From Squalus acanthias (lineage: Eukaryota), in contig CM059432.1 of NCBI GenBank assembly GCA_030390025.1, positions 30,382,001-30,446,000 of the forward strand: a stretch of 64,000 nucleotides of DNA, read 5' to 3'. The notes beneath the pieces are model-generated. The model did no database searches. It had not been told where the DNA came from and worked only from the letters and a program-made list of their open reading frames with translations. The position numbers and the translations under genes were made by a program. Below are positions 1,679 to 63,585 of this stretch, in pieces; positions within the stretch are counted from its first letter, which is position 1, and each line of letters opens with the position of its first letter.

Positions 1679-2478
1679 GGGCTGGATTTTGTCAATGGGG
1701 AGCTTTTGGAGGCGGGACTCCCACTTGTCGGGTTTCAGTCCCGCCTCCATCAACTTCTGGCCAACCCATGCTATTTTCCCTTGATTGACCTTGTTAAGCC
1801 CACCCAGCGGGCTTAGCAGGCCAATTAAGGGAAAGTCGGTTACAGAGAATGTCAGTGGATGACGTTCCATCTGTCAAAAATTTTTGACAGATGAATTGTC
1901 ATCGTTTGACAGCTCTGTGAAGACCTCATCAAACACTGACATTCTCTGTAGTTTGATGAGGTCTTGAATTCAAGACTCATCAAACCTCTTTCTTTAGCAG
2001 AAATTAGATGGTTGCTGCATTGAAGAATGCAACGGCCATCTGTCATCTCTGCCGCGGAGGTCCGAGACTCCGCATCCTCAACTCTTGAAGCCTGCAGGAA
2101 GAAACAAAGGTAAGTAAACTTTTTCTAACACTTTCCACTGACCTCACATACTCACCTCTCCACACTTGCACCCATCACTTACCTTCACAGCCCACTTTTG
2201 CACCCCGCAGACCCCCGCAGACCCACTGCTTGCCTCGGTGACCCTGGCAGGGTTCACAGCCTTCGGGAAGCCCGCACTTGTGTGGGTAAAATGGGGATAA
2301 TCCTCTTATCTGCCTGTTAACTACCTGTTAACAGGCAGTTAAGTGGCTGTAATCCCCTTCCCGCCTCCAAGGAGACGGGACCCAGTGCTGGTCAGCTACC
2401 CGCCTCCTGGCAAGATGGCACGGAGGTAGGTTGGGGGCGGGATGGGCACCCGCCCCCAGATTCTGCCATTTTCCCGGG
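1679..2478. mobile_element. Harbinger-type non-autonomous element, right TIR lost
   Basis: Begins TAA|GGGCTGGATTTT, the same TIR as 40878; CCCGCCTCC subterminal motifs; interrupts the family X leader. Confidence 0.65.
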
Positions 2479-2518
2479 ATTACTAGTCCAGTAACATAAC
2501 CACTATGCTACCGTTCCC
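2479..2518 (-). mobile_element. tRNA-like head remnant (A box) of the family X LINE
   Basis: Reverse complement GGTAGCATAGTGGTTATGTTACTGGACTAGTAA; matches 44010-44050. Confidence 0.65.
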
Positions 2519-13510: not shown

Positions 13511-16500
13511 AACATAGAAACATAGAAACATAGAAGATAGGAGCAGGAGTAGGCCATTCGGCCCCTCTAGCCTGCTCCGCCATTCAATGCGATCATGGCT
13601 GATCATCCAAATTCAGAACCCTGTCCCTGCTTTCTCCCCATATCCCTTGATCTCTTTAGCCTTAAGAAATATATCCAACTCCTTCTTGAATATATTTAAT
13701 GAATTGGCCACTACTGCCTTTTGTGGTAGAGTATTCCACAGGTTCACCACTCTCTGGGTGAAGAAATTCCTCCTCATCTCAGTCCTAAATGGCTTACCCC
13801 TTATCCTTAGACTGTGACCCCTGGTTCTGGACTCCCCCGCCATCGGGAACATCCTTCCTGCATCTAGTCTGTCCAGTCCTTTCAGAATTTTATAAGTTTC
13901 AATGAGATCCCCTCTCATTCTTCTAAACTCCAGCGAGTATAAGCCCAATCGACCCAATCTCTCCTCATATGTCATTCCTGCCATCCCAGGTATCAGCCTG
14001 GTGAATCTTCGCTGAACTCCTTCCATGGCAAGAACCTCCTTCCTCAGATAAGGCGACCAAAACTGCACACAATACTCAAGATGTGGTCTCACCAAGGCCC
14101 TGTACAACTGCAGCAAGACATCCTTGTTCCTGTACTCAAACCCTCTCGCTACGAAGGCCAACATACCATTTGCCTTCTTAACCGCCTGCTGCACCTGCAT
14201 GCTTACCTTCAGCGACTGGTGCACAAGGACACCCAGGTCTCGTTGCACTTCCCCTTCTCCCAATCTATTGCCATTCAGATAATAATCTGCCTTCCTGTTT
14301 TTGACACCAAAGTGGATAACCTCGCATTTATCCACGTTATATTGCATCTGCCATGCTTCTGCCCAATCACCCAACCTGTCCAAATCATCCTGGAGTTTCT
14401 TGGCATCCTCCTCACAGCACACATGCCCACCCAGCTTTGTGTCATCTGCAAACTTGGAGATATTACATCTAGTTCCCTTGTCTAGATCATTAATATATAT
14501 TGTGAATAGCTGGGGTCCAAGGACCGATCCCTGCGGTACCCCACTAGTCACTGCCTGCCACTCGGAAAAAGACCCGTTTATTCCAACTCTTTGCTTTCTG
14601 TCTGCCAACCAGTTCTCTATCCAAGTCAATACCTTGCCCCCAATCCCATGTGCCTTAACTTTGCATGCTAATCTCTTATGCGGGACCTTATCGAAAGCCT
14701 TTTGAAAGTCCAAATACATCACATCCACTGGTTCTCCCTTATCTATTTTCCCAGTAACATCCTCAAAAAATTGCAGTAGATTAGTCAAGCATGATTTACC
14801 TTTTGTAAATCCGTGTTGACTTTGTCCGATCCTGTCACTGTTTTCCAAGTGCTCTGCTATTACATCTTTTATAATGGACTCTAGCATTTTCCCCACTACC
14901 GATGTCAGGCTTACTGGTCTGTAATTCCTCGTTTTCTCTCTACCACCTTTTTTGAATAGTGGGGTAACATTAGCTACCCTCCAATCCATGGGTATTGTTC
15001 CAGATTCCATCGAATGTTGGAAGATGATCAGCAATGCATCTACTATTTCTAGGGCCACTTTCTTAAGTACCCTAGGATGTAGATTATCAGGCCCTGGGGA
15101 TTTATCGGCCTTCAATCCCGCCAATTTCCCTAACACCATTTCCCTACAAATACTGATTTCTTTCAGTTCCTCCCTTTCATCAGACCCTATGTTCCCCAAC
15201 ATCTCTGGGAGGTTATTTGTGTCCTCCTTTGTGAAGACAGAACCAAAATATGTATTTAATTGGTCTGCCATTTCTTTGTTCCCCATTATAAGTTCCCCTG
15301 ATTCTGACTGCAAGGGACCTACGCTTGACTTCACCAATCTTTTTCTCTTCACATATCTATAAAAGCTTTTACAGTCAGTTTTTATGTTCCCTGAAAGCTT
15401 CCTCTCATATTCTATTTTCCCCTTCTTAATTAATCCCTTTGTCCTCCTTTGTTGAATCGTAAACTGCTCCCAATCCTCAGGTTTACTGCTTTTTCTGGCC
15501 AATTTATATGTCCTCTCCTTGGATCTTATGCTATCCCTAATTTCCCTTGTTAGCCACGGTTGAGTCACCTTTTTTGTTTTATTCTTATGCCAAACTGGGA
15601 TGAACAAATTCTGTAGTTCATCCATGCGGTCTTTGAATGTTTGCCATTGTCTATCCACCGTCAACCCTTTGAGTGACATTCCCCAATCAATCCTACCCAA
15701 CTCGCGCCTCATACCATTGTAGTTTCCTTTATTTAAATTCAGGACCCTAGTCTCTGAGTCAACTACTTCACTCTCCATCTTAATGAAGAATTCTATCATA
15801 TTATGATCGCTCCGACCCAAGGGGCCTCGCACAACAAGATTGCTAATTAATCCTTTCTCATTACATAATACCCAGTCTAAGATGGCCTGCTCTCTGGTTG
15901 GTTCCTCGACATATTGGTCCAGGAAACCATCCCGTAAACACTCCAGGAATTCCTCCTCCACAGTATTGTTACTAATTTGGTTAGCCCAATCTATATGTAG
16001 ATTAAAGTCACCCATGATGACTGCTGTGCCCTTATTGCACGCTTCTCTAATTTCCCTTTTAATGCATCCCCAACCTCCGCATTACTGTTTGGAGGTCTAT
16101 ATACCACTCCCACTAACGTTTTCTGCCCCTTGGTATTTCTCAGTTCTACCCATACAGATTCCACATCATCAGAGCTAATATCCTTCCTTACAATTGTGTT
16201 AATCCCCTCTTTAACCAGCAATGCTACGCCACCTCCCTTTCCTTTTTGCCTATCTTTCCTAAATATTGAATACCCCTGGATGTTGAGTTCCCAGCCTTGG
16301 CCACCCTGGAGCCATGTTTCCGTAATCCCAATTAAATCATATTCGTTTACCTCTATTTGCGCAGCTAATTCATCCACCTTATTCCGAATGCTCCTCGCAT
16401 TAAGACACAAAGCCTTCAGGCTTGTTTTTTTAATGCTCTTACACCTATTAGAATTATTATTTACTGTGGCCATGTTTGATTTAAACCGTTGATTTCTCTG

Positions 16501-17275
16501 ACTGCCACTTTTGTTTTTCTCCTTCCTATCTTTTGCTATTATCCTTGTTTCCCTTTCCTCTGTCTCCCTGCTCAGGTTCCCAACCCCCTGCCATTTTAGT
16601 TTAAACCCTTGCCCAGAGCACTAGCAAACACTCCCCCTAGGACATCGGTCCTGGCCCTGCACAGGTGCAAACCATCGGTTTGTACTGGTCCCACCTCCCC
16701 CAGAACCGGTTCCAATGTCCCAGGAATTTGAATCCCTCCCCCTTGCACCATTCCTCTAGCCATGTATTCATCTGAAATATCCTTCTATTTCTACTCTGAC
16801 TAGCACGTGGCACTGGTAGCAATCCGGAGATTACTACCTTTGAGGTCCTATTTTTTAATTTACCTCCTAACTCCCTATATTCAGCTTTTAGGACCTCATC
16901 CCCTTATTTACCTATATCGTTGGTACCTATATGCACCACGACAACTGGCTGTTCACCCTCCCCCTCCAAAATGTTCTGCAGCCGCTCTGAGACATCCTTG
17001 ACCCTTGCACCAGGGAGGCAACACACCATCCTGGAGTCTCGTTTGTGGCCGCAGAAATGCCTATCTATTCCCCTTGCAATAGAATCCCCTATCACTATAG
17101 CTCTACCCCTCTTTTTCCTCCCGTCCTGTGCAGCAGAGCCACCCCTGGTGCCAGGAAGTTGGCTGCTGCTGCCTTCCTCTGATAAGCCATCCCCCCCAAC
17201 AGCATTCAAAGTGGTATATCTGTTTGAGAGGGGGATGTCCACAGGGGACTCCTGCACTACCTGCCTGTGCCTGCC
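13511..17275 (-). mobile_element. Young CR1 LINE, 5'-truncated within ORF1
   Basis: (TTTCTATG)n tail; ORF2 near intact; ORF1 esterase motifs VIGDSIARG and HIGTNDIG. Confidence 0.95.
13613..16473 (-). pseudogene. CR1 ORF2 APE-RT with a single apparent frameshift near 16060
   Basis: 160-aa APE start (LCLNARSIRNK, GITETW) plus 800-aa ORF (MGDFN, SDH, YRPVSLTS, GVPQGSVLGP, FADD). Confidence 0.93.
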
Positions 17276-21185: not shown

Positions 21186-24100
21186 AGAGTATTGTGTGCA
21201 GTTCTGGTCGCCATATTATAAAAAGGATATAGAGACACTGGAGAGGGTGCAGAGAAAATTTCCAAGGATGATACCAGAAATGTGAGGGTATACATATCAG
21301 GAAAGGATAAACAGGCTGGGTCTAGTTTCTCTTGAAAAAAGAAGGCTTAGGGGTGACCTAATAGAGGTCTTTAAAATTATGAAAGGTTTTGATAGAGTGG
21401 ATACAGAGAGCATGTTTCCACTTGTGGGGAAGAGCATAACTAGAGGCCATCAATATAAGATAGTCACCAAGAAATCCAATAAGGAATTCAGAAGAATCTT
21501 CTTTACCCAAAGAGTGGTGAGAATGTGGATCTCGCTACCACAGGGAGTGGTTGAAGCGAATAGTATAGATGCATTTAAGGGGAGGCTGGACAAACATATG
21601 AGGGAGAAGTGAATAGAGGGTTATGCTGATAGATTTAGATGAGGAAAGACGAGAGGAGGCTCGAGTGGAGCATAAACACTGGCATGGACTTGTTGGGCCG
21701 AATGGCCTGTTTCTGGCCATATATCCTATGTAATCCTATGTAATCCACACTCAGTTAAATGCTGCCTTGATGTCAGGGGCAGTCACTCTCACCTCACCTC
21801 TGGAATTCAGCTCTTTTGTCCATGTTTGGACCAAGGCTGTAATGGGGTCTGGAGCCGAGTGGTCCTGCCGGAACCCAAAATGAGCATCGCTGAGCAGGTT
21901 ATCAGTGAGTAAATGCCGTTTGATAGCACTGTCGATGACACCTTCCATCACTTTGCTGATGATTGAGAGTAGACTGATGGGGCGGTAATTGGCGGGATTG
22001 GATTTGTCCTCCTTTTGTGGACTGTTTTACCTGGGCAGTTTTCCACATTGTCAGATAAATGCCAGTGTTGTAGCTGTACTGGAGCAGCTTGGTTCGAGGC
22101 GCAGCTAGTTCTGGAGCACAAGTCTTCAGCACAACAGCCGGGATGTTGTCGGGGCCCACAGCCTTTGCTGTATCCAGTGCGCTCAGCCATTTCTTACTAT
22201 CACATGGAGTGAATCGAATTGGCTGAAGACTGGCTTCTGTGATGGTGGGGACCTCAGGAGGAGGCCGATATGAATCATCCACTCGGCACTTCTTGCTGAA
22301 GATGGTTGTAAACACTTTAGCCTTGTCTTTTGTACTGGCTCTGCCATCATTGAGGATGGGGATATTCATGGAGTGTCCTCCTCCCGTTAGTTGTTTAATT
22401 GTCCACCACCATTCACAACAGGATGCGGCAGGACTGCAGAGCTTTGATCTGATCTGTTGATTAAACCACCGTTGTCTCCCTCAATAGATGCACGCATTGC
22501 CTTTACAGAAGCTGAACTGCTACCTTTCAGCCTCTGCTAAGCATTACTATCTCAGCAAACACTATTCATACCAAGGACAATTTACATTGTGCTAACTACA
22601 TCAATGATCAGCTTTAAGCCCTGTACTTCCCCTTTCTATGATATTCTTGTCCTACTATGTAACCTAAGACTGCTTCCTAACTGGGAGGAGTAACTGTAGT
22701 GGCAGGTTGTTGTTGGGTGCTCAGATCCTATTGGGATAGTTGCGGCCTTGAACCTCTGGGTACATTTTATGGGATGTCTCTGCAGCAGCTGGAGCCATGC
22801 TTGACCATGCAGCAGCAGTAAGCATCGGCCCCTTCCCTGGCATTGCATCAAGCTTTTGAGGGGCCTAGCTGAGCGAACACCCTGACAGGAAGCCGCTTCA
22901 TTGAATCCTTATCTTGCCAAGCCTCTAGTTGACCACCCCAGCTGCATGACCGTGATCTGCATGACAGCAGTCAGTAGGGTGTCTGCAATGTGAGTTAATT
23001 CTGTTGTAATTGCTCTTTGCAGCCAATCTGTCAAATACAGCAGTGACAGGTTGCTGTAAATGGATGGCCAAGGTCTCGACACCACCAGTTACCACGTTCA
23101 TGAGAGCATGTTATTCTGCTCTTGCTCCCTCTACATTCTGGGGCTCCCCTGCAGATGGCCTTGCAGTTTCCATTCATTCCATAGCACTTCACATTTCAGT
23201 AAATCCCTCGTGCATGACTGAAGTGATGTCAAAGTTGCACTGCTGCACACTGTCTGCCAACTGCTGTGGGTTGCCCACTACAGACTGAAAGATCATGGAA
23301 AATGCCTCCTGCTCTTAAATTAACTGCATTCTAAATGCAGGCTTAGTAGGATACTAATTTATTGCCCATACAGCAGGTAAATGCCTGGGCCCTCACCTTG
23401 GCCACATCTTTCCTCTTCCTAGTCAGTCATATGCACTGCTTTCTCCTCACTTGTGACTCGCCTGATGCACTCATTGCCTACATTTTCTGGGGTGCTTCAT
23501 CATCTTGGGAAGAACTTACAGGAAGAGAAAGGGAAGAAGGTTTACAGTGCATCCCCAAGACAATGGATTCGATTTTGCCAGACCCGAGGAGGTGGGATTG
23601 GAGGCATGTGAGGTGTTAAAATCGTAAACAAATGGCGGGCGGCTCTGATCCCGCCTCCAGCCCGCCTCCAAGCAATTTTCCCAGAATCGGGGTTTCAGAC
23701 CCAGTTTCCATCCCGCCTCCAAGAGGTGGGATAGGCCCTTAAGGCCCTTAACAACCAGTTCATTGCCTCTGTAATCCCATTTTGAGAGGCCTTTCTGATT
23801 TTAACACATTTCCCCCATCCTGCACGTCTCCTCTGGAACACGCCAGTTAATTCTGGTGGCCTCACAAGTGGATTGCTTACTAACAGCTGCAGCTCCACCA
23901 TTAAAAATGAGTTTTCACCAATTATCATTTGCAGGTGGCAGAACTTTGTTGTCTTAGGTCTGGGGGAACTTTTAGCAGGCATACTCATTGTTGTGGAAGT
24001 TTGGAGCCTGACACCCATCTCCAGTGTGACCTCCTGGGAAACCCCTCTCCCCACCTTGACTGAGTGTTTCCTCAACTGAGGCATATACTAGAAGCATGGG

Positions 24101-36449: not shown

Positions 36450-38967
36450 ATATTTGTGCCTGGCGCTATTTTTTTCAACTTTGAAAAGTTAGTGCCCCAA
36501 ACGGGGCGTCACCGAATTTCTCCCCCTTAGTGTCAGAATTTGAATAAGAAAGCTCAGAAATGGAGAGAAGATGCTACACTGTAAACATTAGAAAAAAAAG
36601 GATGATTGTATTCAAGGTTGTAAACAGTAGAAGAGTTTGAATGACATTCAAACTCTTTGGTGTTCAGCCAACTGTTATTCTCTATATAATAGATTTGCAA
36701 TTAACTGCTGTTTTCTGTCGTTTAAAGTGGAGAGAGACATTTGTCTATTCAGCTGAACTGAATGCAGGCAATGCAATGTTTCATTGGGCTCCTATCATCT
36801 GTATTTAAAAGGTTTTAACCTTCAATGGAGAGTCATTACTTTATGGCAGGCACTTTCCTTGAATGTTTGATACTTGATGATTGTATAGAAGCATTCTACC
36901 TAAAATGGAACAAATCAGACAAACTCTCCCACACACACACACTCATAAAGTGTGATTGATTTTCTCACTATTGTGATTGAAATGTTACATTTCCTGAATC
37001 TGTGCTCAGCATCAATTCTTACAGCAGCACATCCTTTCTCTCAGTTCTTTTCGGGCCTATAATTAAAGAGGTAATTGCTTATTTTTTCAACTAATTATAA
37101 TAATAGCTGTACACAACTTCTACTGTAATATTAATATCTGTACGCTGTACGATTCAAATTAAACTGTGATACAGTAAAAAAATCATTTAAATGTGTTAAT
37201 ATCATACAGTGCAAGTTCTCACGTTTAAATCCACTTTTATGAGCAACCAGAGAAAAAAAGCGCAATTAAGCTTTTTAGTTAAGGCATCACAGTTTTTTAA
37301 AATTTGTTCCTGGGATGTGGGCGTCGTTGGCAAGGCCAGCATTTATTGCCCAACCCTAACTGCCCTTGAGAAGGTGGTGGTGAGCCACCTTCTTCAACCG
37401 CTGCAGTCCGTGTGGTGAAGGTACTCCCACAGTGCTGTTAAGGAGGGAGTTCAAGGATTTTGACCCGGTGACGATGAAGGAACGGCAATATATTTCCAAG
37501 TTAGGATGGTGTGTGACTTGGAGGGGAATTGGATGTGGTGGTGTTCCCATGCGCCTGCTGCCCTTGTCCTTCTAGGTGGAAGAGGTCGCAGGTTTGGGAG
37601 GTGCTGTCGAAGAAGCCTCGGCGATTTGCTGCAGTGCATCTTGTAGATGGTGCACACTGCAGCCACGGTGCACCAATGGTAGAGGGAGTGAATGTTTAAT
37701 GTGGTGGATGGGATGCCAAGCAAGCGGGCTGCTTTGTCCTGAATAGTTTCGAGCTTCTTGAGTGTTGTTGGAGCTGCACTCATCCAGGCAAGTGGAGAGT
37801 ATTCCATCACACTCCTGACTTGTGCCTTGTAGATGGTGGAAAGGCTTTGGGGAGTCAGAAGGGGAGACACTCATCGCCGAATACCCAGCATCTGATCTGC
37901 TATTGTAGCCACACTATTTAAGTGGCTGGTCCAGTTAAGTTTTTGGTCAATGGTGACCCCCAGGATGTTGATGGTGGGGGATTTGGCATTGTTAATCCCG
38001 TTGAATGTCAAGGGGCAGTGGTTAGACGCTCGATTGTTGGAGATAGCCATTGCCTGGCACTTGTGTGGCGCGAAGGTTACTTGCCACTTATCAGCCCAAG
38101 CCTGAACGTTGTCCAGGTCTTGCTGCATGCGGGCATAGACTACTTCATTATCTGAGGAGTTGCGAATGGAACTGAACACTGTGTAATCATCAGTGAACAT
38201 TCCCACTTCTGACCTTATGTTGGAGGGAAGGTCACTGATGAAGCAACTGAAGTTGGTTGGGCCTAGGACACTGCCCTGAGGAACTCCTGCAGCGATGTCC
38301 TGGGGCTGAGATGATTGAACTCCAACCACCACAACCACCTTCCTTTGTGCTAGATATGACTCCAGCCAGTGGGGAGTTTTCTCCTTGATTCCATTGACTT
38401 CAATTTTACGAGGGCTCCTTGATGCCACACTCGGTCAAATGTTACCTTGATGTCAAGGGGCGGTCTCTCTCACCTCACCTCTGGAATTCAGCTCTTTTGT
38501 CCATGTTTGGACTCAGGCTGTAATGAGGTCTGGAGCTGAGTGATCCTGGCAGAACCCAAACTAAGCATCAATGAGCAAGTTATGGTGAGGAAGTGCCACT
38601 TGATAGCACTGTCGATGACACCTTCCATCACTTTGCCAATGATTGAGAGTAAACTGATGGGGCGGTATTTGGCCGGATTGGATTTGTCCTACTTTTTGTG
38701 GACAGGACATACCTGGGCAGTTTTCCACATTATCGGGTAGATGCCAGTGTTGTAGCTGTACTGGAACAGCTTGGCTAGAGGCACGGCTAATTCTGGAGCA
38801 TAAGTCTTCAGCGTGACAGCCGGGATGTTGTCAGGGCACTCAGCTGTTCCTTGATATCACGTGGAGTGAATTGAATTGGCTGAAGACTGGCTTCTGTGTT
38901 GGTGGGGATGTCAGGAGGAGGCCGAGATGGATCATCCACTCGGCACTTCTTGCTGAAGATGGTTGGA

Positions 38968-39032
38968 AATAGAAACATAGAAACATAGAAAATAGGTACA
39001 GGAGTAGACCATTCGGTCCTTCGAGCCTGCTT
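38968..39032 (-). mobile_element. Ultra-short CR1 3' tail insertion
   Basis: AGAAACATAGAAACATAG plus GGAGTAGACCATTCGG stem-loop only. Confidence 0.75.
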
Positions 39033-40877
39033 CAAACTTGTCTTTTGCACGCACGTGCTGGGTTCCACCATCAATCAGGATGGGGATATTCATGGAGCCT
39101 CCTTCTCCCGTTAGTTGTTTAATTGTCTACCACCATTCATGACTGGATGTGGCAGAACTGCAGAGCTTTGATCTGCACTCCTCATTGAACCAGGGTTGGT
39201 TCCCTGGCTTGACGGTAATGGTAAAGTGAGGGATATGCCGGGCCATGAGGTTACAGATTGTGGTGTAATACAATTCTGCTGCTGCTGATGGCTCACAGCG
39301 CCTCATGGAAGCACAGTTTTGAGCTGCTAGATCTGTTCTGAATCTATCCCATTTAGCATGTGGTAGTGCCACACATCACGATAGAGGGTCCTAAGTGTGA
39401 AGACGGGACTTCGTCTCCACAAGAACTGTGCAGTGGTCAGTCCTACCAATACTGTCATGGATAGATGCATCTACGACAGGTAAATTAGTGAGGATGAGGT
39501 CAAGTAGGTTTTTCCCTTGTGTTGGTTCTCTCACCACCTGCCGCAGGCCCACTTTGGCTGTTATGTCCTTCAGGACTCAGTCAGCTCGGTCAGTAGTGGT
39601 GCTACCGAGCCACTCTTGGTGATGGACATTGAAATCCTCCATCCAGAGTGCATTCTGTGCCCTTGCTACCCTCAGTGCTTCTTCAACTGGTGTTCAACAT
39701 GGAGGAGTACTGATTCATCAGCTGAGGGAGGGAGGGTGGTAGGTAGTAATCAGCCGGAGGTTTCCTTGCCCATGCTTGACCTGAAGCCATGAGACTTCAT
39801 GCGGTCCGGAGTCAATGTTGAGGACTCCCAGGTTCACTCCCTCCTGATTGCTTACCACTGTGCCCTACCAGTGGGACAGGACATACCCAGGGATGGCGAT
39901 GGAGGAGTCTGGGACATTGGCTGGAAGGTATGATTCTGTGAGTATGACTATGTCGGGCTGTTGCTTGACTAGTCTGTGCGACAGCTCTCCCAATTTTGGC
40001 ACAAGTCCCCAGATGTTAGTGAGGAAGACTTTGCAGCGTCGACTGGGCTGGGTGTGCCATTGTCATGTCCGAAGCCGGTGCCTAGGTCGATGCCAGATGG
40101 TCCGTCCAGTTTTATTCTTATTATTGTTTTTTGTAGTGGTTGGTATAAGTGAGTGGCTTGCTGGGCCATTTAAGAGAGCAGTTAAGAGTCAACCACATTG
40201 CTGGAGTCACATATAGGCCAGACCAGGTAAGGACGGCAGATTAGTGAACCATAGAGTCATAGAATCATAGAATCATAGAAAGGTTACAGCACAGAAGGAG
40301 GCCATTCGGCCCGTCGAGCCCATGCCGGCTCTCTGCAAGAGCACTTCAGCTAGTCCCACTCCCCCGCCCTTTCCCCATAGCCCTGCAGAATTTTTTCCTT
40401 CAGGTACTTGTCCAATTCCCTTTTGAAAGTCACGATTGAATCTGCCTCCACCACCCTTGCAGGCAGTGCATTCCGGATTCTAACCACTCGCTGCGTAAAA
40501 AAGTTTTTCCTCATGTCACCTTTGGTTCTTTTACCAATCACCTTAAATCTGTGTCCTCTGGTTCTCGACCCTTACACTAATAGGAACAGTTTCTCTCTAT
40601 CTACTCTGTCTAGTCCCCTCATGATTTTGAACACCTCTATCAAATCTCCTCTCAATCTTCTTTGCTCCAAGGAGAATAACACCAGCTTCTCCAGTCTATC
40701 AATGTAACTGAAGTCCCTTATCCCTGGAATCAATCTCGTAAATCTTTTCTGCACCCTCTCTAAGGCCTTCACATCCTTCCTAAAGTGCGGTGCCCAGAAT
40801 TGAATACAATACTCCAGTTGAGGCTGAACCAGTGTTTTATAAAGGTTCATCATAACTTCCTTGCTTTTGTACTCTAT

Positions 40878-41554
40878 GGGCTGGATTTTCATTGACCTGT
40901 GGAGGCGGGTTTGGAGGCGTGTGGGGGGTTAAATTGCGAAAAGTGGCGGGCGGGCACAAGTCCGCCTCCATCCCGCCTCCACGCAATTTTCATTAAATCG
41001 TGTCTGCTGGTCCCGACTCCGTCCCGCCTTTAAGAGATGGGATAGGCTGTTAAGGCCCTTAACAAGCACTAAATTGGCTCTATAATGCCATTTTGAAAGG
41101 CCTTTGTGATTTTAACCCTTGTTCTACGTGAAGCACGCCTGTTCTGAACCACGATTGTGAAACCTGGCGGTAACACATTTCGAAAGCTGACTATCAGCTG
41201 CAGGTCCACTATTACAACGGAGTAGTAGTAGTAGTCGGAAAAATCTCTGGGAGCAGACGTAGGGCTGCTGCTGCTCATTTTGCCTTCAGTCTCTCTCTCT
41301 CTCTCATTTTGCATCCTCTCACAGCAAAGGCCAGGCAGTCTCTGAAGACCTTCAATGCAGCAGCAATGATGACATCATCAGAGGCGACTTTCAGACTGAA
41401 AACACTAATTGGTTTAGGGGTTCCCACATGCTGGAACTCAATTGCCCAATTAGGTGAAATTTGCATCAATCTCCCACATCCAATTGCAGTTGGGTGGATA
41501 ACACGAAAAGTGGATGACACGACCCCAACCCGCCCCAGTATCAAAATCCAGCCC
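40878..41554. mobile_element. Harbinger MITE
   Basis: Perfect TIR GGGCTGGATTTT/AAAATCCAGCCC; TSD TAT/TAT. Confidence 0.92.
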
Positions 41555-42005
41555 TATGCCTCTATTTATGAATCCCAGGATCCCGTATGCTTTTTTAAGC
41601 ACTTTCTCAACCTGTCCTGCCATCTCAATGATTTGTGCACATATACCCCCAGGTCTCTCTGTTCGTGCATCCCCTTTAGAATTGTACCATTTAGTTTATA
41701 TTGCCTCTCCTCGTTCTTCCTACCAAAATGTATCACTTTGTACTTTTCTGCATTAAATTTCATCTGCCACACGTCCACTCATTTCACCAGCCTGTCTGTG
41801 TCTTCCTGAAGTCTATCACTATCCTCACTGTTCACTATGCTTCCAAGTTTTGTGTCATCTGCAAATTTTGAAATTGTACCCTCTACTCCCAAGTCCAAGT
41901 CATTAATATATATCAAGAAAAGCAGTGGTCCTAGTACCAACCCCTGGGGAACACCACTGTATACCTTCCTCCAGTCCGAAAAACAACCGTTCACCACTAC
42001 TCTCT

Positions 42006-42749
42006 GGCCCAGAAATTGATCTCGCTCTGTTCCCGCGGGGGTAAGCCTTCCCCGCGATGTCTCACCTCGCTTATGCTTTTTCTGATCCAGCTCGCACGAA
42101 CTTGATGTTCCAGACATCAGCTGTGCTGGGCTTGCGTATCCCAGCGGCGCAGTTAATTCGTGCGAGCTGTGGGATCACGTGACTCAGTTAGAGCCAATGG
42201 CAGCACACCATCTTCCATTCATAAGTCTCACAGCATGGCTGTGAGACTTATGAATCTTACACCCCCCCAAAATAACAGCTAAACCTCAATTAAATTTTTT
42301 AAAAAAACCATCACATTAATAAAATAAGTATAGTTAATTAAATTAACCATTTTAAATAAAAAATTAAATTTTTGAAAAAATTTAAAATCTTTTAAAAAGT
42401 TATAAAAATAAACTTACCTGTCTTTAAAGTCTATAAAAAAGATATACCTGTAAAAAAAAATTCAAAAAAATACTTAATTCACTACTTACCTTCTTAAAAG
42501 CGGGTCTTACTCCTCCTTTTTACATTTCCAAAATCTTCCCTACTTACCTGCGCGTCCAAAGCATGACGTGCACAGCGTGCGCGCAGCCTGTAGCGCGCAC
42601 GCGATGCACTCAGGCCCCGCCCCCTTTTCGGAAGAGCAATTGCCGGTTTTCAGCGCATGCGCAGGGCATGCAGAAAACCGGCAATTGGAGTGGGAATACG
42701 CGAGAGTACGCAGTGCGTACTCTCGCGTCCCGGGATCAATTTTCGGCCC
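42006..42749. mobile_element. Harbinger-type MITE related to 32115-32877
   Basis: GGCCCAGAAATTGATC / GATCAATTTTCGGCCC; same internal layout. Confidence 0.82.
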
Positions 42750-44050
42750 ATTGTTTCCTGTCACTTAGCCAATTTCGTATCCATGGTGCCACTGTCCCTT
42801 TTATGGAATGGGCTTCAACTTTGCTGGTCAGCCTATTATGTGGCACTTTATCAAACGCCTTTTGGAAGTCCATATACACCACGTCAAACGCATTGCCTTC
42901 ATCAACCCTCTCTGTTACCTCATCAAAAAACTTGATCCAGTTAGTTAACAAATCCGTGCTGGCTTTCCTTAATTAATCCACACTTGTCCAAGTGACTGTT
43001 AACTCTTTCACTATGACTTTGGCAGCATCTTCTTCCTTGGTGAAGACAGATGTAAAGTACTCATTTAGTACCTCAGCCATACCCTTTGCCTCCATGCGTA
43101 GGTCTCCTTGTTGGTCCCTAATCGGCCCCACCCCTCCTCTTACTACCCATTTATTATTTATATGCCTATAGAAGACTTTTGAATTTCCTTTTATGTTAGC
43201 TGCCAATCTATTCTCATACTCACTCTTTGCCCCTTTTATTTTCTTTTTCACTTCCCCTCTGAACTTTCTTTATTCAGCCTGATTCTCACTTGTATTCTCA
43301 ACCTGACATCTGTCATACGCTCCTTTTTCTGTTTCATCTTTCTATCTCTTTCATCATCCAGGGAGCTCTGGCATTAGTTGCCCTACCTTTCCCCCTTGTG
43401 GGACTGTACCTCAACTGTACCTGAACCATCTCCTCTTTAAAGGCAGTCCATTGTTCGATTACAGTTTTGCCTGCCAATCTTTGATTCCAATTTACCCGGG
43501 CCAGATCCATTCTCAACCCACTGAAATTTGCCTTCCTCCAATCAAGTAATTTTACTCTAGATTGCTCGCTGTCCTTTTCCATAGCTAACTTAAACTGTTA
43601 TGATACTATGATCACTGTTCCCTAAATGTTCCCCTACTGACACTTGCTCCACTTGACCCACTTCATTCCCCAGAACCAGATACAGCAATGCCTCCTTCCT
43701 CATTGGGTCGGAAACATACTGATTAAGAAAGATCTCCTGAACACACTTCAGAAATTCTTCCTCATCTCTGCCCTTTACACTATTACTATCCCAGTCTATA
43801 TTAGGATAATTGAAGTCCCCCATCATTACTACTCTATAGTTCTTGCACCTCTCTGTAATTTGAGTTTTCTCAACAATCCAATAGTTTCATCAACACCATT
43901 ACTGATACTAGCTTTTTATTCAAAATTTATTTAATTAACTCAATTTAAATTCCCCATCTGCTGTGGTGGGATTTGAATTGATATTTCTGGATCATTAGTC
44001 CAGACCTCTGGATTGCTAGTCCAGTAACATAACCACTATGCTGCCATACC

Positions 44051-44730
44051 ATTTTTTTCAACATCAAATCATACATGAGCAAAAATTGTCTTTAACTTAA
44101 CATCGGCAAAACTGAATCCAGCCTGATCGGCTCCCAGCAAAAACTCTGCACCCTGGAGTCTGATTACATCCCCCTCCTTGACTGTTTGCTCAGGATGAAC
44201 CTAATGGTTGTTTACCTCTGTGTCCAGTTTGACTCTGAGCTAAGCTTCAAACTTCACATCATAGCAACCATCAAGACCACCTGTTTCCCATCTGCCATCA
44301 TTACTTTCCTTGCTGGTCTCTCAAGTTCCACCCTTCAGAAACTGCAATGCATTCAAAGCTCTGCCAACTGCATTCTATCCCACATTAGATCCTGCAACGC
44401 AAGTCCTTGCCAACCACCATTGTCTCCCCATCCCTAAATGCATCAAATTCAAAATCCATGTCCTTGTTTACAAGTCCCATCACGGCCTCCTTCCTCTTCA
44501 CCTCTACAAATACATCCAGCCCTGCCTCCCAGTTCGTATCCTCTGCTTTTACAGCTCTGGCCTTCCTTGAATTCCTCCCACCATTCCTACTCTACCTTCA
44601 GCAGCTTTGACTCTGCAGTCTAGAATGCTCTCCTTAAATCTTTCTAACTCTGTTCCTTCCTTCAAAAGCCTCCTCAAAACCTACCACTTTGACCTTGTCT
44701 CCAGTCACCTCACCTAATCTTTCTCTAATC
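44051..44730 (+). mobile_element. Decayed L2 3' region
   Basis: LQCIQSSA, IKFKIHVLVYKSHHGLLP, CTTCAAAAGCCTCCTCAAAACC. Confidence 0.7.
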
Positions 44731-45765: not shown

Positions 45766-46593
45766 TTAAAGATGCTGTAAAATTGCTGAGTTATCTCATT
45801 GTTTTCTACTCTTTAGCTTTGCCCCCCCCCTCGTGCCTATCCAAAAAAAGACAGACAGACTATCTGTTACCAAAGCTGTGACCAATTCAATTCTCAGCTC
45901 TGTAACCAGCCAATAATAGGCATATAGAGGCAGCCTGAAGCACCTAACCTCTGCTCAGCATCACTGTCTGACGGCATGACCAAGATCATAAACTCACCGT
46001 GTGAAAATTCATAGGTAGAAAAAGTCACTGTTCCTGTTCCATTTTGCACTCAATATTTTTCTGTCTTTCTTAGAAAGCAGAAGCTATCAGCTGAAGGCAT
46101 GGCTCCTAAATCCAATGGCAGACTCCCAGGTTAAAAAGAGAAAGTACTGGAAAACACAATGGGTGAAAAATTCGGCTCCGTAGCACCTCATTTTTTCGGC
46201 GCTATGGGTGCCGTTTTATGTCAAAAATGGTGCCCACACCATGCACGCACACTTCTGGTGCGTGCCGCGACGCACGCCATCATAGTGAGAGCGGTAGGGC
46301 GGCGTTAGGAGCGGCACCGGAAGTATGCAGAGTGCGAAGATCGTGATGTCAATCAGGGTGCAACTGTCTTAACCTCGCACAGCTGAACATGCAGTCAACA
46401 TCAGCAAGGACCCCCCACCAACGCTATTTAAAGGGATCAGCAACCACTCTAAAGTTAGTTGCTGATTAATTTCTACTGGCTCTGTGTAAGTTTGTGGAAG
46501 TGTTTGGAGCTTTCCAGAGTTGTTTAAAGTTGGTGAGGTGACAGGGAGTGGTGCTGCGGGAGAAGGTCCTGTTCAGACCACTTGCTCCCAGTC

Positions 46594-49292
46594 ATGGGTG
46601 CTCTAGTTGTCATCCCCCTTGGCCTGCAGCATGACAGGGAGATGGAGCAGAGGCTGCAAAGAAGAGGACAAGCTGCTCACAGAGGGAGGTGGAGAAGGGG
46701 GAAAAGGTCTCTCAGCAGGAGACCTTACCTACCTAGGGCCTTCCGAGAGCAATTCTCTTACATCAGCCTGAGCCAGGAGCAGTGTGTGAGGAGTCTGCGC
46801 TTTACAAAGGAGGAGCTGTCAGATCTCTGCCGCCTTTTGCAACCAGTCCTGCAGCCTCACAGCAGGGCAAGGAAAATAATTCCAGTGGCTGTGAAGGTGA
46901 CCATGGCCATGAATTTCTTCGATTCGGGATCCTTCCAGGCTGGAGCAGGCAACATCTGTAACATCTCCCAGTTCGCCGTCCACTGCTGCATAAAAGAGGT
47001 GACAGACGCTCTTTATGCCAGGAGAGATTACTTCATTGTCTTCATTGTCTGAACAGAGAGAAGCAGGCAGAGCATGCACGTGGCTTTGTCAGGATAGCGG
47101 GCTTTCATAAGAACATAAGAACATAAGAAATAGGAGCAGGAGTAGACCAATCGGCCCCTCGAGCCTGCTCCGCCATTCAATGAGATCATGGCTGATCTGA
47201 TCCAACCTCAACTCTAAAGAACACAAGAAGTAGGAGCAGGACCAGGCCACTCGGCCCCTGGGCCCGCTCCGCCACCCACAGGGCCTTGACCGATCTGAAC
47301 TCAAACTCATGTCCAATTTCCAGCCCGCTCCCCGTAACCCCTGATTCCCTTTACTTCTAGGAAACGGTCTATTTCTGTTTTAAATTTATTTAATGAAGTA
47401 GCTTCCACAGCTTCCTAGGGTAGCAAATTCCACAGACCCACTACCCTCTGAGTGAAAAAGTTTCTCCTCATCTCAGTTTTGAAAGAGGAGCCCCTTATTC
47501 TAAGATTATGTCCCCTAGTTCTAGTTTCACCCATCATTGGGAACATCCTCACCGCGTCCACCCGATCAAGCCCCTTCACAATCTTATATGTTTCAATAAG
47601 ATCGCCTCTCATTCTTCTGAACTCCAATGAGTAGAGTCCCAATCTACTCAACCTCTCCTCGTATGTCCACCCCCTCATCCCCGGAATTAACCGAGTGAAC
47701 CTTCTTTGTACTGCCTCGAGAGCAAGTATGTCTTTTCTTAAGTATGGACACCAAAACTGTATGCAGTACTCCAGGTGCGGTCTCACCAATACCCTATACA
47801 ACTGCATCAATACCTCCCTGTTTTTATATTCTATCCCCCTAGCAATAAAAGCCAACATTCCATTGGCTTTCTTGATCACCTGCTGCACCTGCATACTAAC
47901 TTTTTGATTTTCTTGCACCAAGACCCCCAGATCCCTTTGTACTGCAGTACTTTCCAGTTTCTCGCCATTAAGATAATAACTTGCTCTCTGATTTTTCCTG
48001 CCAAAGTGCATAACCTCACATTTTCCAATATTGTATTGCATCTGCCAAATCTCTGCCCACTCACCCAGCCTGTCTATATCCCCTTGTAGGTTTTTTATGT
48101 CCTCCTCACTCTCTACTTTCCCTCCCATCTTTGTATCATCTGCAAACTTTGATATGTTACACTCGGTCCCCTCCTCCAAATCGTTAATATAGATTGTAAA
48201 GAGTTGGGGACCCAGCACCGACCCCTGCGGAACACCACTGGCTACTGGTTGCCAGTCCGAGAATGAACCATTTATCCCAACTCTCTGCTTCCTGTTAGAT
48301 AACCAATCCTCCACCCATGCCAGAATATTACCCCCAATCCAGTGATTTTTATCTTGAGTAATAATCTTTTATGTGGCACCTTGTCGAATGCCTTCTGGAA
48401 GTCTAAATACACTACATCCACTGGTTCCCCTTTATCCACCCTGTACGTTATGTCCTCAAAGAACTCGAGCAAATTTGTCAGACATGACTTCCCCTTCATA
48501 AAGCCATGCTGACTTTGTCCTATTAAATTATGTTTATCTAAATGTTCCGTTACTGTCTCCTTAATAATAGACTCCAAAATTTTACCCACCACAGATGTTA
48601 GACTAACTGGTCTATAATTTCCAGCCTTCTGCCTACAACCCATGGTGCAGGGCGCCATCGACTGCACTCGTGTGGCTTTGCGGGCACCGCATCTAAATGC
48701 TTAGATGTACCGCAACCGCAAAGGTTTCCACTCACACTTGGTGTGTGACTATGCTCAGCATATTGTGATGGTGAATGCCCAGTATCCTGGCAGCAGTCCT
48801 GATGCTTTTATTCTGCGCCAGTCCGCTATTCCCTCAGTCTTTGTGCCACCACGTCAAACCAGAGGCTGGCTGCTGGGCGACAAGGGCTATCCCTTGACCA
48901 CCTGGCTCATGACTTTGCTCCACAACCCAAGCACATGTGACCAGTATGCGTACAATGAGAGCCATGCTGCCACACAAAACATTATAGAGCAGAGCATTGG
49001 GGTGCTGAAGCAAAGGTTCCGCTGCCTGGACTGCTCTGGAGGAGCCCTGCAGTACTCACCAGAGCGTGTCTTAAGATTCGTTGTGGTCTGCTGCATGCTC
49101 CACAACCTCGCCATCATAAGGGCACAGCCCTTGCCAGCAAGCATATGGCGACCAGCTGAGGAGGAGGAGAAAGAGGAGGAGAAGGAGGATGAGGATGTGG
49201 AGAAGGAGGAAGTGGAACGGAGGAAGCAACCCAGACAGCCCTTTTTTGCCCGGGCTGTCTGTGATCAACTCATCCGACTGCGGTTCCAGTGA
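46594..49292 (+). pseudogene. HARBI1-like DDE transposase split by a CR1
   Basis: LRFTKE, FFDSGSFQ, GAIDC, YRNRKGFHS, YPGS, GDKGY, IEQSIGVLKQRFRCL, CCMLHN. Confidence 0.92.
47106..48638 (-). mobile_element. 5'-truncated CR1 inserted in the transposase
   Basis: RT ORFs 47415-48314 and 48272-48630; (TTCTTATG)n tail. Confidence 0.93.
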
Positions 49293-54220: not shown

Positions 54221-55734
54221 AGAGCCAATTTAGGGATAGTTAAGAGCGTTAATGGCCTCTCGCGCCTCTTGGAGGCGGGACGGAGTCGGGAACCCCGCGA
54301 CCCATTTTGTCAAAATTGCGTGGAGGCGTGTTGGAGTCGGGACCCCCGAATCTGCTACTTTAACCCCCCACATGCCTCCAAACCCGACTCCACGGGTCAT
54401 TCAAAATCCAGCCCTTCCTCTCTACTGGTGTCTTTTTGAACTTGGTGCCCTCTAAAGGGTATCTGTGGCAACTGTACACAGCAGGGAGGCTGTTCAACCA
54501 ATCAAATTGAAAAATTGAAGAAATTGACACACATAGACAGCAAAGCAGGAAGTAAAAAACAGGAAATATAAATTACATTTAAATCATTGTACAGGAAGTG
54601 AAATAAAGGTTGGGACATAGGAGTAAGGGAGAAACATTAAATAGAAAAACAGAGTTTGTAATTTAAAAAAAAATCTGTAACAGAATGTTTAGGGTAACCT
54701 ATTTGCAGCTTATGAGGGACGAGAGAGGAAGGTTCATCGGAATATATTTGCACAAATAAAAAAGGTTTGGCTGCACCAAAGACATTGGTTGGATGGTAGA
54801 ACCAGGAGTGGGGTCAGACAATAAGCTTTCTCTTAGATTTTATCCAGGAGTGAGGGAGGTGTTAGGTGCAGCCTCCTCAGATTTGGAAGCAGCATTTAAG
54901 TCATTGATGCTTATTAGAAAGTAACAACTTGTTGGCGAGGAAGAAAAATGTTAACGCAAAAGAGAAAAACAACCTTCTTGGAGGCATCTATGGGCATGGA
55001 TGACATGTGGGAGTTCCATTTGAGGTCAAAGTGAGAATGTGAGACCAAGACTGTGGCTAGATGAAGAAAGACTAAGGGTGGAGCCAGCAAAGGTTGTGGT
55101 GGTTGTTGGTCATACCTGTGAAATTGGGCATGCAGGAACTGTGCTTATTGAGGAATTAAAAGACTAAATCATTTGTGTGCATTTTTCAATATTTTGTATT
55201 TATTTTGTGCAACAGATAGGGGGTGTGAAATTGGGCTCGGTAGCACCTGTTTTTTTGGTGCTATGAAAGCCCGTACGGTTTCAAAACGGCATCCGCAGCC
55301 CGTGTGCACATTCCTGACACAAAGCGTGCTGGACACCATCTTGGTAAATGGGTTAGCGCGCGAGTACTTAATGTTCACCGGAGATATGTAGAGCAGGCAG
55401 TTCATGACGTCAATCAGCCCGCAACACGATTTGACACCAACACCGCCATTTTGGAGCTCCACGCTGCAACCAACGCTTTATCTTAACCTCGCATAGCTGA
55501 AGACACATTAAGCAGCATGATGGACCCCCCCAACAGTACTATTTTAATGGGATCATCAACTACTTACAGATTAGTTGCTGGTTGATTTCTTCTGGCTGTT
55601 GCTACAATTCTATACATTTTTGGTGCTTTCTATAGTTGTTTGAAGTTTCAAACGTCTACACAGAGCGGTGTGGCAGATGCTGAAGAACTTCTTGCTGACT
55701 TCAAGGCTTCTGCACAAACCAGTTTCTCCCAGAC

Positions 55735-56515
55735 ATGGGTGCACTAGTAGGCCTTCCTCTTGGAATCGAGCATGACTGGGAAAATGAGCAGAGGATATGC
55801 AGAGCAGGACAAGCTGCTAGAAAAGGGAGGAAGGGGAGAAGGGCTCTCAGCAGGAGGCCATATCTGCCCAGGGTGTACAGTGAGCAATTCTCCTACCTGA
55901 ACCTCAGCGACGATCAATGTTTAAGACGTCTGCGCTTCACTAAGGAAGTGGTCACTGAAATCTGCCACCTGCTGCAGCCACAACTCCAACATCAGAGCAG
56001 GGCAAGGACCGCATTGCCAGTGGCTGTGAACTTTGTGTCTGGCTCCTTCCTGGCTGGTGCTGGAGATATTAGCAACATCTCGCAGTTTGCAGTCCACTGT
56101 TGCATAAGGGAAGTCACTGAGGCTCTCTATTCAAAGAAACATTACTTCATTTCATTCCCTCTTGCCAGAGAGAAGCAGGCAGAGCAAACACAAGGGTTTG
56201 CAAGGTTTGTAGTCTTCCCAATGGTGCAGGGTGCCATTGACTGCATGAACATTGCTTCGCGGTCGCTGCATGTCAACTCTGCCATGTACCGGAGCCGAAA
56301 GGGATTTCATTCCCTCAACGTCCAGTTAAAGTGTAACCATAGGCAGCGCATCATGCAGGTCAGTGCCCGGTATCCTGGCAGCAGTCATGATGCCTTCGTT
56401 CAGCGGCAGTCTGCTGTGCCAGCTGTATTTCAGCCACAACAGCAAACCAAAGGGTGGCTACTGGGCGACAAGGGCTATCCGCTGACGACATGGTTCATGA
56501 CTCTGGTTCACAACC
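55735..56515 (+). pseudogene. HARBI1-like transposase with C-terminal part deleted
   Basis: Open frame with GAIDC, YPGSSHD, GDKGY; jumps to 3'UTR sequence before the catalytic Glu. Confidence 0.9.
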
Positions 56516-56788
56516 TACTAATCACCCTTGTGCATTCTCTTAGTGCCTGTCTTCCGTGTGCCTCTGCCTGTCCTAGTGCTCCTACGCAGTGCTACCCCAG
56601 TGGCTGCAGCATGGCTGGTGGAAGGCTGCTGACTTTGCAGATGGCCTTGGAGGACGACATTGAGCAGCTCTGGGCCTAGAAGGCCTGGCTGTAGACTACA
56701 ACATTTCAGCATGAGTGGCAGCCATCTGGGATGGCTGTCTGACAGGCAACAGCAAGGACACTGGCGGAGTGACAGGGGTAGGCTCATG

Positions 56789-57750: not shown

Positions 57751-58220
57751 ATGTCGAGTGAGAATTTTCTTGTAGATTATAAAGCGAAGTTAATGAAGAA
57801 GTGCGATGAGGCCAGTTACAGATGTTAGTAGAATGTCTAACAAAGGATGTGAAGGTACTTTTCGAGGACGTTGTGGCGTTCATTGAAAGACAAGTTAAGG
57901 AAAAGAAATTGAAGCCAGATAGGGTAGCGCAGCTAATGGCCTATGCCGCAGTGTATTGTGTAGAACAAGATAAAGAAACCTTCCTAGAGATGGAAGATGA
58001 ACAGGATAAATTAGAAAAAGACAAACTACGGCTTATAGAAGAGAATCTAACATTACAGGGTGAGAAATTAAAATGGGAAAAAGAAGCTGTAGAATTAAAC
58101 AATGAACAAGAAGTCCTTCAAGGACAAATCGGTGCTGCAACAGCAATAATACAACAGCAGAGTATTAATGCAGTTCATGCCGGCGCTGCAATACAGAATC
58201 TTGAGGAGGCTAAAAGCCAA
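57751..58220 (+). pseudogene. Truncated gag-like ORF with coiled coil
   Basis: First ORF after the PBS; one frameshift near 57825; E/K/L heptad-rich. Confidence 0.6.
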
Positions 58221-58310
58221 ATCCTGAGAGATGACAGCAGATTTGTGCTCCATGGAGCCACTGCCACTCTCCTGGGGCGGCACCGCAGCAATCCTAGTAA
58301 TCTGTTGGAG

Positions 58311-58768
58311 AAAAGAAGAAGTCTTGCATTTATATAGCGCCTTTCATGACCACCGGACGTCTCAAAGCGCTTTACAGCCAATGAAGTACTTTTTGGAGTG
58401 TAGTCACTGTTGTAATGTGAGAAACGCAGCAGCCAATTTGCGCACAGCAAGGTCCCATAAACAGCAATGTGATAATGACCAGATGATCTGTTTTTGTTAT
58501 GTTGGTTTAGGGATAAATATTGGCCAGGACACCGAGGATAACTCCCCTGCTCTTTGAAATAGTGCCATGGGATCTTTTACGTCCAACTGAGAGAGCAGAC
58601 GGGGCCTCGGTTTAACGTCTCATCTGAAAGAGGGCACCTCCAATAGTGCGGCACTCCCTCAGCACTGCACTGGAGTGTCAGCCTAGCTTTATGTGCTCAA
58701 GTCCCTGGAGTGGGACTTGAACCCACAACCTTCTGACTCAGTAGGTGAGTGTGCTACCAACTGAGCCA
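58311..58768 (-). mobile_element. Full-length SacSINE1-like Deu-SINE
   Basis: Reverse complement TGGCTCAGTTGG A box, GGTTCAAGTCC B box, Deu-like core, L2-like tail. Confidence 0.88.
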
Positions 58769-62551: not shown

Positions 62552-63585
62552 ATGGGTGCTGTAGTTGTCATCCCCCTTGGACTGCAGCATGACAGGGAGA
62601 TGGAGCAGAGGCAGCAAAGAAGAGAACAAGCTGTTCGCAGAGAGAGGAGGAAGGGGAGAAGGGCTCTCAGCAGGAGGCCCTACCCACCTAGGGTCTTCCG
62701 AGAGCAATTCTCTTACCTCAGCCTAAGCCAGGAGCAGTGTGTGAGGTGTCTGCGCTTTACGAAGGAGGTGTTCACAGAACTCAGCCACCTCTCGCAACCA
62801 GACCTGTAGCCTCACGCCAGGGCAAGGGCAGCATTGCCAATGGCTGTGAAGGTGACCATGGCCTAGAAATTCATCGCGTTGGGATCCTTCCAGGCTGGAG
62901 CAGGCGACATCTGTAACATCTCTCAGTTCGCCATCCACTGCTGCATAAAAGAGGTGACAGACGCTCTTTATGCCAGGAGAGGGGCCTTCATTGTCTTCTC
63001 TCTGAACAGAGAGAAGCAGGCAGAGCGTGCATGTGGCTTTGTCAGGACAGCGAGCTTAGCGATAGGGTGCCATCGACTGCACGCACGTGGCTATGCGGGT
63101 ACCGCAACTCAGCTGTGATGTACTGCAACCGCAAAAGTTTCCACTCACTGAATGTGCACTTGGTGTGTGACCATTCTCGGCATATCATGATGGTGAATGC
63201 CCGATATCCTGGCAGAAGTCATGATGCTTTTATTCTGTGCCAGTCCGTTGTTCCCTCAGTCTTTGAGTCACCAAGGCAAACCAGGGGCGACAAGGGCTAT
63301 CCCATAACCACCTGGTTTATGACTCCGCTCCGCAACCCAACCACACGTGGCCAGTATGCGTACAATGAGAGCCATGCTGCCACATGAAACATCATAGAGC
63401 AGAGCATTGGGATGCTGAAGCAATGGTTCCGCTGCCTGGACCGCTCTGGAGGAACACTGCAGTACTCACCAGAGGGCGTCTCAAGATTCGTCGTGGTCTG
63501 CTGCATGCTCCACAGCCTTGCCATCAGGAGGGCGCAGCCCTTGCCACCAGGCATATGGCGACCAGCTGAGGAGATGAAGGAAGAG

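Follow-up and report, generated by a model that had tools for sequence, protein, structure and literature searches.

The segment at positions 43861-44050 of the window, by which we mean the entire 64,000 nt of Squalus acanthias DNA analysed here, belongs to a LINE with one APE-RT ORF and forms its tRNA-like 5' end; the copy is split by a nested CR1 element. We identify the element to which it belongs as a dead and decayed copy of an abundant elasmobranch family, the Zenon LINEs of the CR1 group. When active, such an element was likely transcribed from end to end by RNA polymerase III (henceforth Pol III); its transcript was likely translated with neither a cap nor an AUG. Drive by Pol III is supported indirectly, by the geometry of the 5' end, the avoidance of T-runs relative to control elements and the retention of the head in five shark and ray species. 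The Zenon family and its loss of ORF1 are already known, as documented in parts of PMC13343379 and PMC6740152; a variant with a Pol III-type design was not found described within the reach of our literature search. The copies and fragments of the family in the window, with their parts and the insertions that split them, are as follows (family positions are those of the genome-wide consensus):

43861-44051, reverse strand: 5' end of copy 2, i.e. the tRNA-like head (family about 1-95) and the start of the leader (to 191); 86% identical to the consensus over 7-191 and recovered by the head search.
44033-44043, reverse strand: A box of copy 2 (consensus start: position 9), from the sequence and the Rfam tRNA alignment of locus L017.
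43987-44024, reverse strand: two hairpin arms of copy 2, one anticodon-arm-like and a look-alike where a long variable arm would be, from the sequence, the Rfam alignment and paired changes seen by eye in the second arm of other sharks.
43969-43979, reverse strand: B-box-like word, decayed in copy 2, from the sequence and the consensus.
40252-43860, reverse strand: nested 5'-truncated CR1 splitting copy 2, so labelled by eye from its tail repeat and APE motif.
40134-40174, reverse strand: decayed anticodon-like hairpin of copy 2 and its codon-like triplet, ahead of the ORF, from the sequence and the family profile.
37293-40242, reverse strand: body of copy 2, with the remaining leader, broken APE-RT ORF (APE start near 40029), 3' hairpin region and A-tail; 89-92% identical to the consensus, with Pfam APE and RVT_1 matches on locus L055.
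2477-2518, reverse strand: first 42 nt of the head of copy 1 (A box and half of the first arm), matching consensus 1-42; 43-141 are gone.
1679-2476, no strand assigned: insert splitting copy 1, its left end matching the inverted repeat at 40879, from the sequence.
1485-1527, reverse strand: anticodon-like hairpin of copy 1 with an intact loop, and codon-like triplet (1486-1488), from the sequence.
1-1677, reverse strand: body of copy 1, from leader position 142 through the APE (start near 1392) and off the window edge; 91.8% identical to consensus 142-1833.
11496-12520, reverse strand: fragment of a further family member, truncated at its 5' side to RT and tail, from consensus comparison.
21745-22480, reverse strand: internal fragment of the same family, from consensus comparison.

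In copy 2 the window positions 44045-43861 correspond to family 7-191 and the remainder of the family to 40242-37302, with the A box, both look-alike arms and the B-box-like word together spanning 44043-43969; the nested CR1 in turn contains two inserts with terminal inverted repeats, at about 40879-41556 and 42007-42750. The original prediction of a tRNA-like head in two independent copies is confirmed, although copy 1 is missing family 43-141, second arm and B box included, beside an insert. The two copies are about 85% identical and have unrelated flanks, indicating that they did not arise by local segmental duplication. Many other short inserts with terminal inverted repeats are present in the window, as are fragments at 46537-47052, 48705-49292, 55699-56679 and 62917-63387 that, from their motifs, we take to be of Harbinger-type transposases, and a 175-aa frame with a coiled-coil-like stretch on the forward strand (57810-58337), perhaps a gag-like fragment. 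A long CR1 on the reverse strand (12831-16620), with an 822-aa open stretch and an upstream ORF1 of esterase-type appearance (motif by eye), served as a control.

To establish where elements of this family begin, 69 genomic loci were chosen by their APE region and not by the head, 39 of them through DNA and 30 through peptide matches, with three near-duplicate pairs included. Of these, 31 begin at family positions 1-5, that is no more than 5 nt from the first base of the head; 36 begin within 1-30, four within 31-95 and 29 further in. The 38 starts other than those at 1-5 are scattered over 7-435, and all of these loci are collinear with the same leader. Neither an ORF1 nor an alternative 5' end was seen among the 69 loci, in line with the absence of ORF1 originally claimed, and no copy was found to reach past the head. 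Upstream flanks are common only to the three duplicate pairs and, over about 90 nt, to one further pair. A 3,305-nt consensus was built from 37 of the 39 DNA-anchored loci; its single frame, 973 codons from stop to stop, carries the APE and RT domains (Pfam). The family is thus 3.3 kb long, and not 3.1 kb as first reconstructed, and its leader has 443 nt. None of the 39 loci retains an intact ORF, the longest reaching 799 aa. A-runs of 4-12 nt are present at 81 of 90 tails; terminators behind the A-tail are not enriched (7/81 vs 87/729 windows). Target-site duplications are absent: a repeat of at least 7 nt was found in none of 28 complete elements, just as for shuffled pairs.

A first look at the genome gave 3,806 candidates for the head, and a search with the first 34 APE residues gave 17,076, of which all 150 that were scored are identical; with such numbers the observation is not due to chance. 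Leader-to-APE contigs were also recovered from six organisms, although contigs cannot show starts and no single one of them ran from the head to the APE. These data bear on the explanation that the two parts are mere neighbors, with SINEs having landed upstream of truncated LINEs, or the result of a local duplication. The abundance of a short form (16 of 29 head-anchored loci) speaks for it; it is refuted by the mapping of 5' ends at the 69 APE-anchored loci, and we give it practically no credence, as one and the same head-leader-APE junction, uninterrupted by any SINE tail, recurs at dozens of loci dispersed over the genome; it is also seen in the consensuses published for five species (in the part of the supplement covering their first 400 nt) and in the leader-to-APE contigs of the six organisms. 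The dispersed loci with this single junction bear out the original view of a propagating, head-bearing LINE family devoid of ORF1.

Several further observations on the genomic copies were made. Three loci (L016, L038 and L282) form an older-looking subfamily with a different A-rich spacer, which is open and in frame in L016 and L282. About 18 near-identical copies of one family fragment lie on unplaced contigs and chromosome ends (G000 C2462, C3666, C13:100.47-100.54 Mb, C11:126-194 kb, C19:713 kb and others), likely in a subtelomeric or tandem repeat. Pieces 72-84% identical to the Zenon ORF are also present in three annotated shark proteins (P0001, aldo-keto reductase-like; P0007, sushi/vWF-like; P0009, LRRC32-like), representing either exonized fragments or gene-model errors.

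The host genome of 3.7 Gb is repeat-rich and its repeats match shark families. In the published sections consulted, Zenon elements are described from sharks, rays, coelacanth and hagfish as always lacking ORF1 and as the sole CR1-group elements with a poly-A tail (Stuart et al. 2026, PMC13343379). The family analysed here likewise has a single ORF with APE and RT, no ORF1 and a poly-A tail, and its first 400 nt, compared by eye, agree nearly letter for letter with SquAca_Zenon-1, one of three published dogfish consensuses (SquAca_Zenon-1 to -3) in the supplement of that paper; the latter has 3,314 nt, as against 3,305 nt plus tail here, and is likewise without ORF1 and with a poly-A tail. The top matches that bear a name are one moth and one lancelet protein. 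Given that absence of ORF1 is normal for Zenon elements in the relevant parts of PMC13343379 and PMC6740152, it is not the novel part of the present findings. What was found here, and is not in the parts of PMC13343379 examined, is the head, the T-run avoidance, the missing AUG and the short forms; the main text of that paper gave no matches for tRNA, promoter or polymerase III. Our literature search, with Repbase, Dfam, SINEBase and most subscription journals beyond its reach, recovered no paper on a Pol III-driven or tRNA-headed Zenon. The lepidopteran Zenon and Persaeus elements, as described in sections of PMC6740152, resemble the dogfish family in their single APE-RT ORF, length of about 3.3 kb, poly-A tail and repeated internal-deletion derivatives; Persaeus differs in being stated there to have neither tRNA homology nor a Pol III promoter.

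The tRNA likeness of the head is weak by Rfam. ARAGORN reported no tRNA within the 64-kb window, and the Rfam tRNA model matched the head in one of four loci, with a score under the cut-off (23.8 bits vs 29, E 0.32). The best local match among eight tRNA types from fetched loci, Ser having been chosen on purpose, is tRNA-Ser(AGA) with a z of 4.8, closely followed by Cys with 4.2, so that Ser is no more than a candidate donor type. In the same genome tRNA genes are found in tandem arrays with a period near 1.7-1.8 kb (G000 C889, C2208 and C29), with Ser-AGA on C889 by motif and Lys-TTT dominant among the others. The fixed 5' end of the family lies 8 nt ahead of the A box, a spacing typical of tRNA-derived SINEs. 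Two other accounts of the head were discarded: processing of the 5' end in the manner of RNase P is unlikely, as by eye the acceptor stem is unpaired, and as shuffled sequences fold just as well as the head (z -0.13), and a MetaSINE, with its 66-bp Meta domain after the head, is rejected, since two alignments of bivalve MetaSINEs, inspected by eye, do not resemble the sequence.

Comparison by eye with the first 400 nt of the consensuses in the PMC13343379 supplement showed that all seven elasmobranch Zenon consensuses, from five species, open with the head and its A and B boxes, while the head is absent from the three hagfish and coelacanth consensuses over the same stretch. The B box is textbook in three of the seven elasmobranch rows and degenerate in one, and in these rows both boxes are kept over the five species with the stretch between them diverged. 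In the rows of that supplement the sequence of the second arm varies from one species to the next, with changes that come in pairs, so its look-alike "duplication" is peculiar to this lineage. Among 22 metagenome relatives with an APE start (of 80 fetched), which are only 24-37% identical to the Zenon studied here, a simple pattern search over 1.2 kb detected A plus B boxes in none, and the leader motif gave no matches in viral and prokaryote contigs.

The family consensus is free of internal Pol III terminators of four or more Ts: it contains no TTTT in its 3,305 nt, where 3.9 would be expected (P 0.016; P 0.012 under a codon model), and seven TTT against 19.9 expected, a number as low as which was seen in none of 2,000 shuffles. 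Runs of A, C and G are near expectation, the depletion being limited to T-runs, and none of the non-canonical terminator patterns tested was found. Across Zenon copies, 59 TTTT were counted against 362 expected, a ratio of 0.16 (258 kb in 192 pieces, which are not independent counts). By comparison, CR1 controls in the same genome have TTTT at 1.3-2.1 times expectation, and an L2 control is at 1.0 times (142 vs 141 expected in 29 copies); two L2 pieces had at first look shown 2 vs 7 TTTT, which the 29-copy sample did not bear out. Related metagenome ORFs hold 7-30 TTTT in 19 of 19 cases. The phenylalanine content of the Zenon ORF, 1.8%, is lower than in any of 101 similarly long relatives, whose minimum is 2.3% and median 4.4%. 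Such a depletion of T-runs and phenylalanine would be the expected trace of selection against termination by Pol III. Against Pol III, the sense strand is T-poor (19-20%), and another cause may account for that.

One objection is that the family is an ordinary Zenon LINE transcribed by Pol II, in which the head is a captured-SINE relic or a Pol II promoter and the missing T-runs reflect base composition. In its favor, the absence of TTTT has a P of 0.11 when the codon usage of the element itself is held fixed in synonymous shuffles, an AATAAA-like word overlaps the tail, and some SINE or Pol III promoters also drive Pol II; moreover, the relevant part of PMC10886601 has Pol II as the polymerase of non-LTR elements. 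Yet it sits badly with the A and B boxes being kept in the published rows of five species despite the diverged stretch between them, with a depletion confined to T-runs and unseen in L2, CR1 and the 19 relatives, and it leaves the missing AUG unexplained. We consider it distinctly improbable, and full-length Zenon RNA was probably made by Pol III, whichever RNA gives rise to the protein. TFIIIC would then bind the A and B boxes of the head, and Pol III would run through 3.3 kb owing to the lack of an internal terminator. Against this, the weak processivity of Pol III is argued to limit such elements to about 1.3 kb (Kojima 2024); in its favor, Pol III transcripts are said to need no ORF1 (PMC2666806). 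With no ORF1 involved, the Zenon protein would copy the RNA that encodes it through target-primed reverse transcription. Right before the A-tail there is also a T-run of one to five letters that varies between copies (e.g. 37293-37305; L125-L153), with at least two Ts in 12 of 31 unselected tails, as against 3/46 and 2/56 at internal T-A boundaries; this could stem from Pol III U-ends that were later A-tailed or from slippage at a longer run, and was given no weight.

The translation of such an RNA poses a problem of its own, since the ORF of the consensus has no in-frame Met until some 250 residues in, past the start of the APE, and an in-frame AUG upstream of the APE is found in only 8 of 52 copies. 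The possible start is bounded by an in-frame stop at 327-329. Upstream of it a stem (298-323) presents a 7-nt loop, four letters of which can pair with 336-339, where a codon-like triplet lies in the APE frame 6 nt past the stop. Both the loop and the triplet are conserved, by eye, across the five species in the PMC13343379 supplement. Of 53 copies here, 37 have an intact triplet region, and 38 have the triplet in frame with the APE. The A-rich spacer that follows has 18 nt here and, by eye in the published rows, in three species and 15 in one; upstream of the triplet, an indel of 1 nt is tolerated in one species. In the spiny-dogfish row as published the spacer is 17 nt, 1 nt shorter, which would break the APE frame. 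In-frame indels in dead copies are mostly slips of 3- or 6-nt repeats and were not counted as selection. The pairing itself comprises 4 bp, is invariant and without covariation, and has a chance rate of 2-5%. Leader folding is no better than that of shuffles, Rfam gave no IRES match, and a coarse test for a PKII/PKIII fold returned a helix list of simple hairpins only.

We propose that ribosomes would load near family 330-356 and that the frame is possibly set by pairing of the anticodon-like hairpin with the next in-frame triplet, this being the least certain step; as a start device the pairing is a weakly supported lead. The parallel is with the type 6 intergenic IRES of dicistroviruses, where, in the sections of PMC10516663 and PMC3517527 consulted, an AUG-less start follows an anticodon-like loop able to pair with a codon-like triplet, with about 160 nt conserved upstream. 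Zenon differs in that it shows, in its sequence, the 4-bp PKI-like pairing only, with no nested PKII/PKIII. A start mechanism akin to the intergenic IRES in the Zenon leader appears doubtful to us.

A second objection concerns the source of the protein. Pol III might make only the RNA that is copied, with the protein coming from rarer Pol II transcripts (through host read-through or a Pol II start) by way of the AUG at 358, followed by a -1 frameshift or by re-initiation after the 48-codon ORF that this AUG opens. This would explain the 5' end and the T-run avoidance equally well, and the AUG, though out of frame, has a good context, follows an A-rich stretch and is present in six of the seven elasmobranch rows of the published supplement; furthermore, Pol III RNAs are as a rule untranslated, according to parts of PMC2666806. 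It fits poorly with ATA standing at 358 in 23 of 57 copies here, some only 0.6-1% diverged, and with the lack of a tandem slippery heptamer by eye. Furthermore, a number of the differences between species in this stretch leave the protein of the APE frame unaltered but would alter that of the AUG frame (e.g. three letters at one site, all coding for Arg), and supply in trans would forfeit the cis advantage. We regard this division of labor between polymerases as unlikely, and rather favor that the protein was made from the same Pol III RNA with no AUG used.

The head-anchored loci further link this LINE to SINE-like elements. Among 29 others of this kind, 11 extend into the ORF, two are interrupted and 16 join the leader (at 285-344) directly to the last 90-135 nt. 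These 16 have the organization of tRNA-derived SINEs, with an A/B-box head (of weak tRNA likeness by Rfam), no coding capacity and a LINE-derived 3' end. Several of the leader-tail junctions recur, one of them where both sides share a short word, and different junctions are seen in contigs from other organisms, which suggests that the short forms arose by repeated internal deletions of the head-bearing LINE; alternatively, they may be nested deletions of one older SINE. The short forms have the look of deletions; capture of a SINE by the LINE and excision of the SINE-sized forms from a head-bearing LINE are both plausible. Internal deletions would yield SINE-sized passengers that keep the promoter and the tail. 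In the part of PMC5786205 consulted, tRNA-derived SINEs with LINE tails, including bipartite RTE- and Vingi-derived ones, consist of an A/B-box head, a body and a LINE 3' end, which the short forms fit exactly; the difference is that here the partner that codes for protein itself begins with this head and body.

Precedents for Pol III promoters derived from small RNAs in non-SINE retroelements are the TRIMp3 elements Cassandra, Helenus and Ajax; as described in passages of PMC10886601, these differ in being short, non-coding LTR elements whose autonomous partners are expected to use Pol II. The working rule, as given in parts of the same source, assigns LINEs to Pol II and SINEs to Pol III, the latter polymerase being thought unfit for long coding RNA. 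Taken to its extreme, the present case might represent an autonomous retrotransposon wholly outside the mRNA system, with a 3.3-kb uncapped Pol III RNA, a tRNA-mimicking pseudoknot that, in the dicistrovirus manner, loads ribosomes with neither AUG nor initiator tRNA, and true SINEs spawned by single internal deletions, a combination that we hold to be improbable as a whole. A shark and ray family purged of T-runs across its reading frame, down to its phenylalanine content, is nevertheless a candidate natural exception to the Pol II rule. PMC3894237 raises IRESs of the dicistrovirus kind in non-LTR elements as a hypothesis only, and the question it poses, the translation of an uncapped, AUG-less retrotransposon RNA, becomes testable with Zenon, as do the possible one-step origin of SINEs, through deletions in a LINE that bears a head, and the ability of a Pol III RNA to encode an enzyme in an animal. 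If true, a protein-coding element would be made by a polymerase thought to serve non-coding RNAs only.
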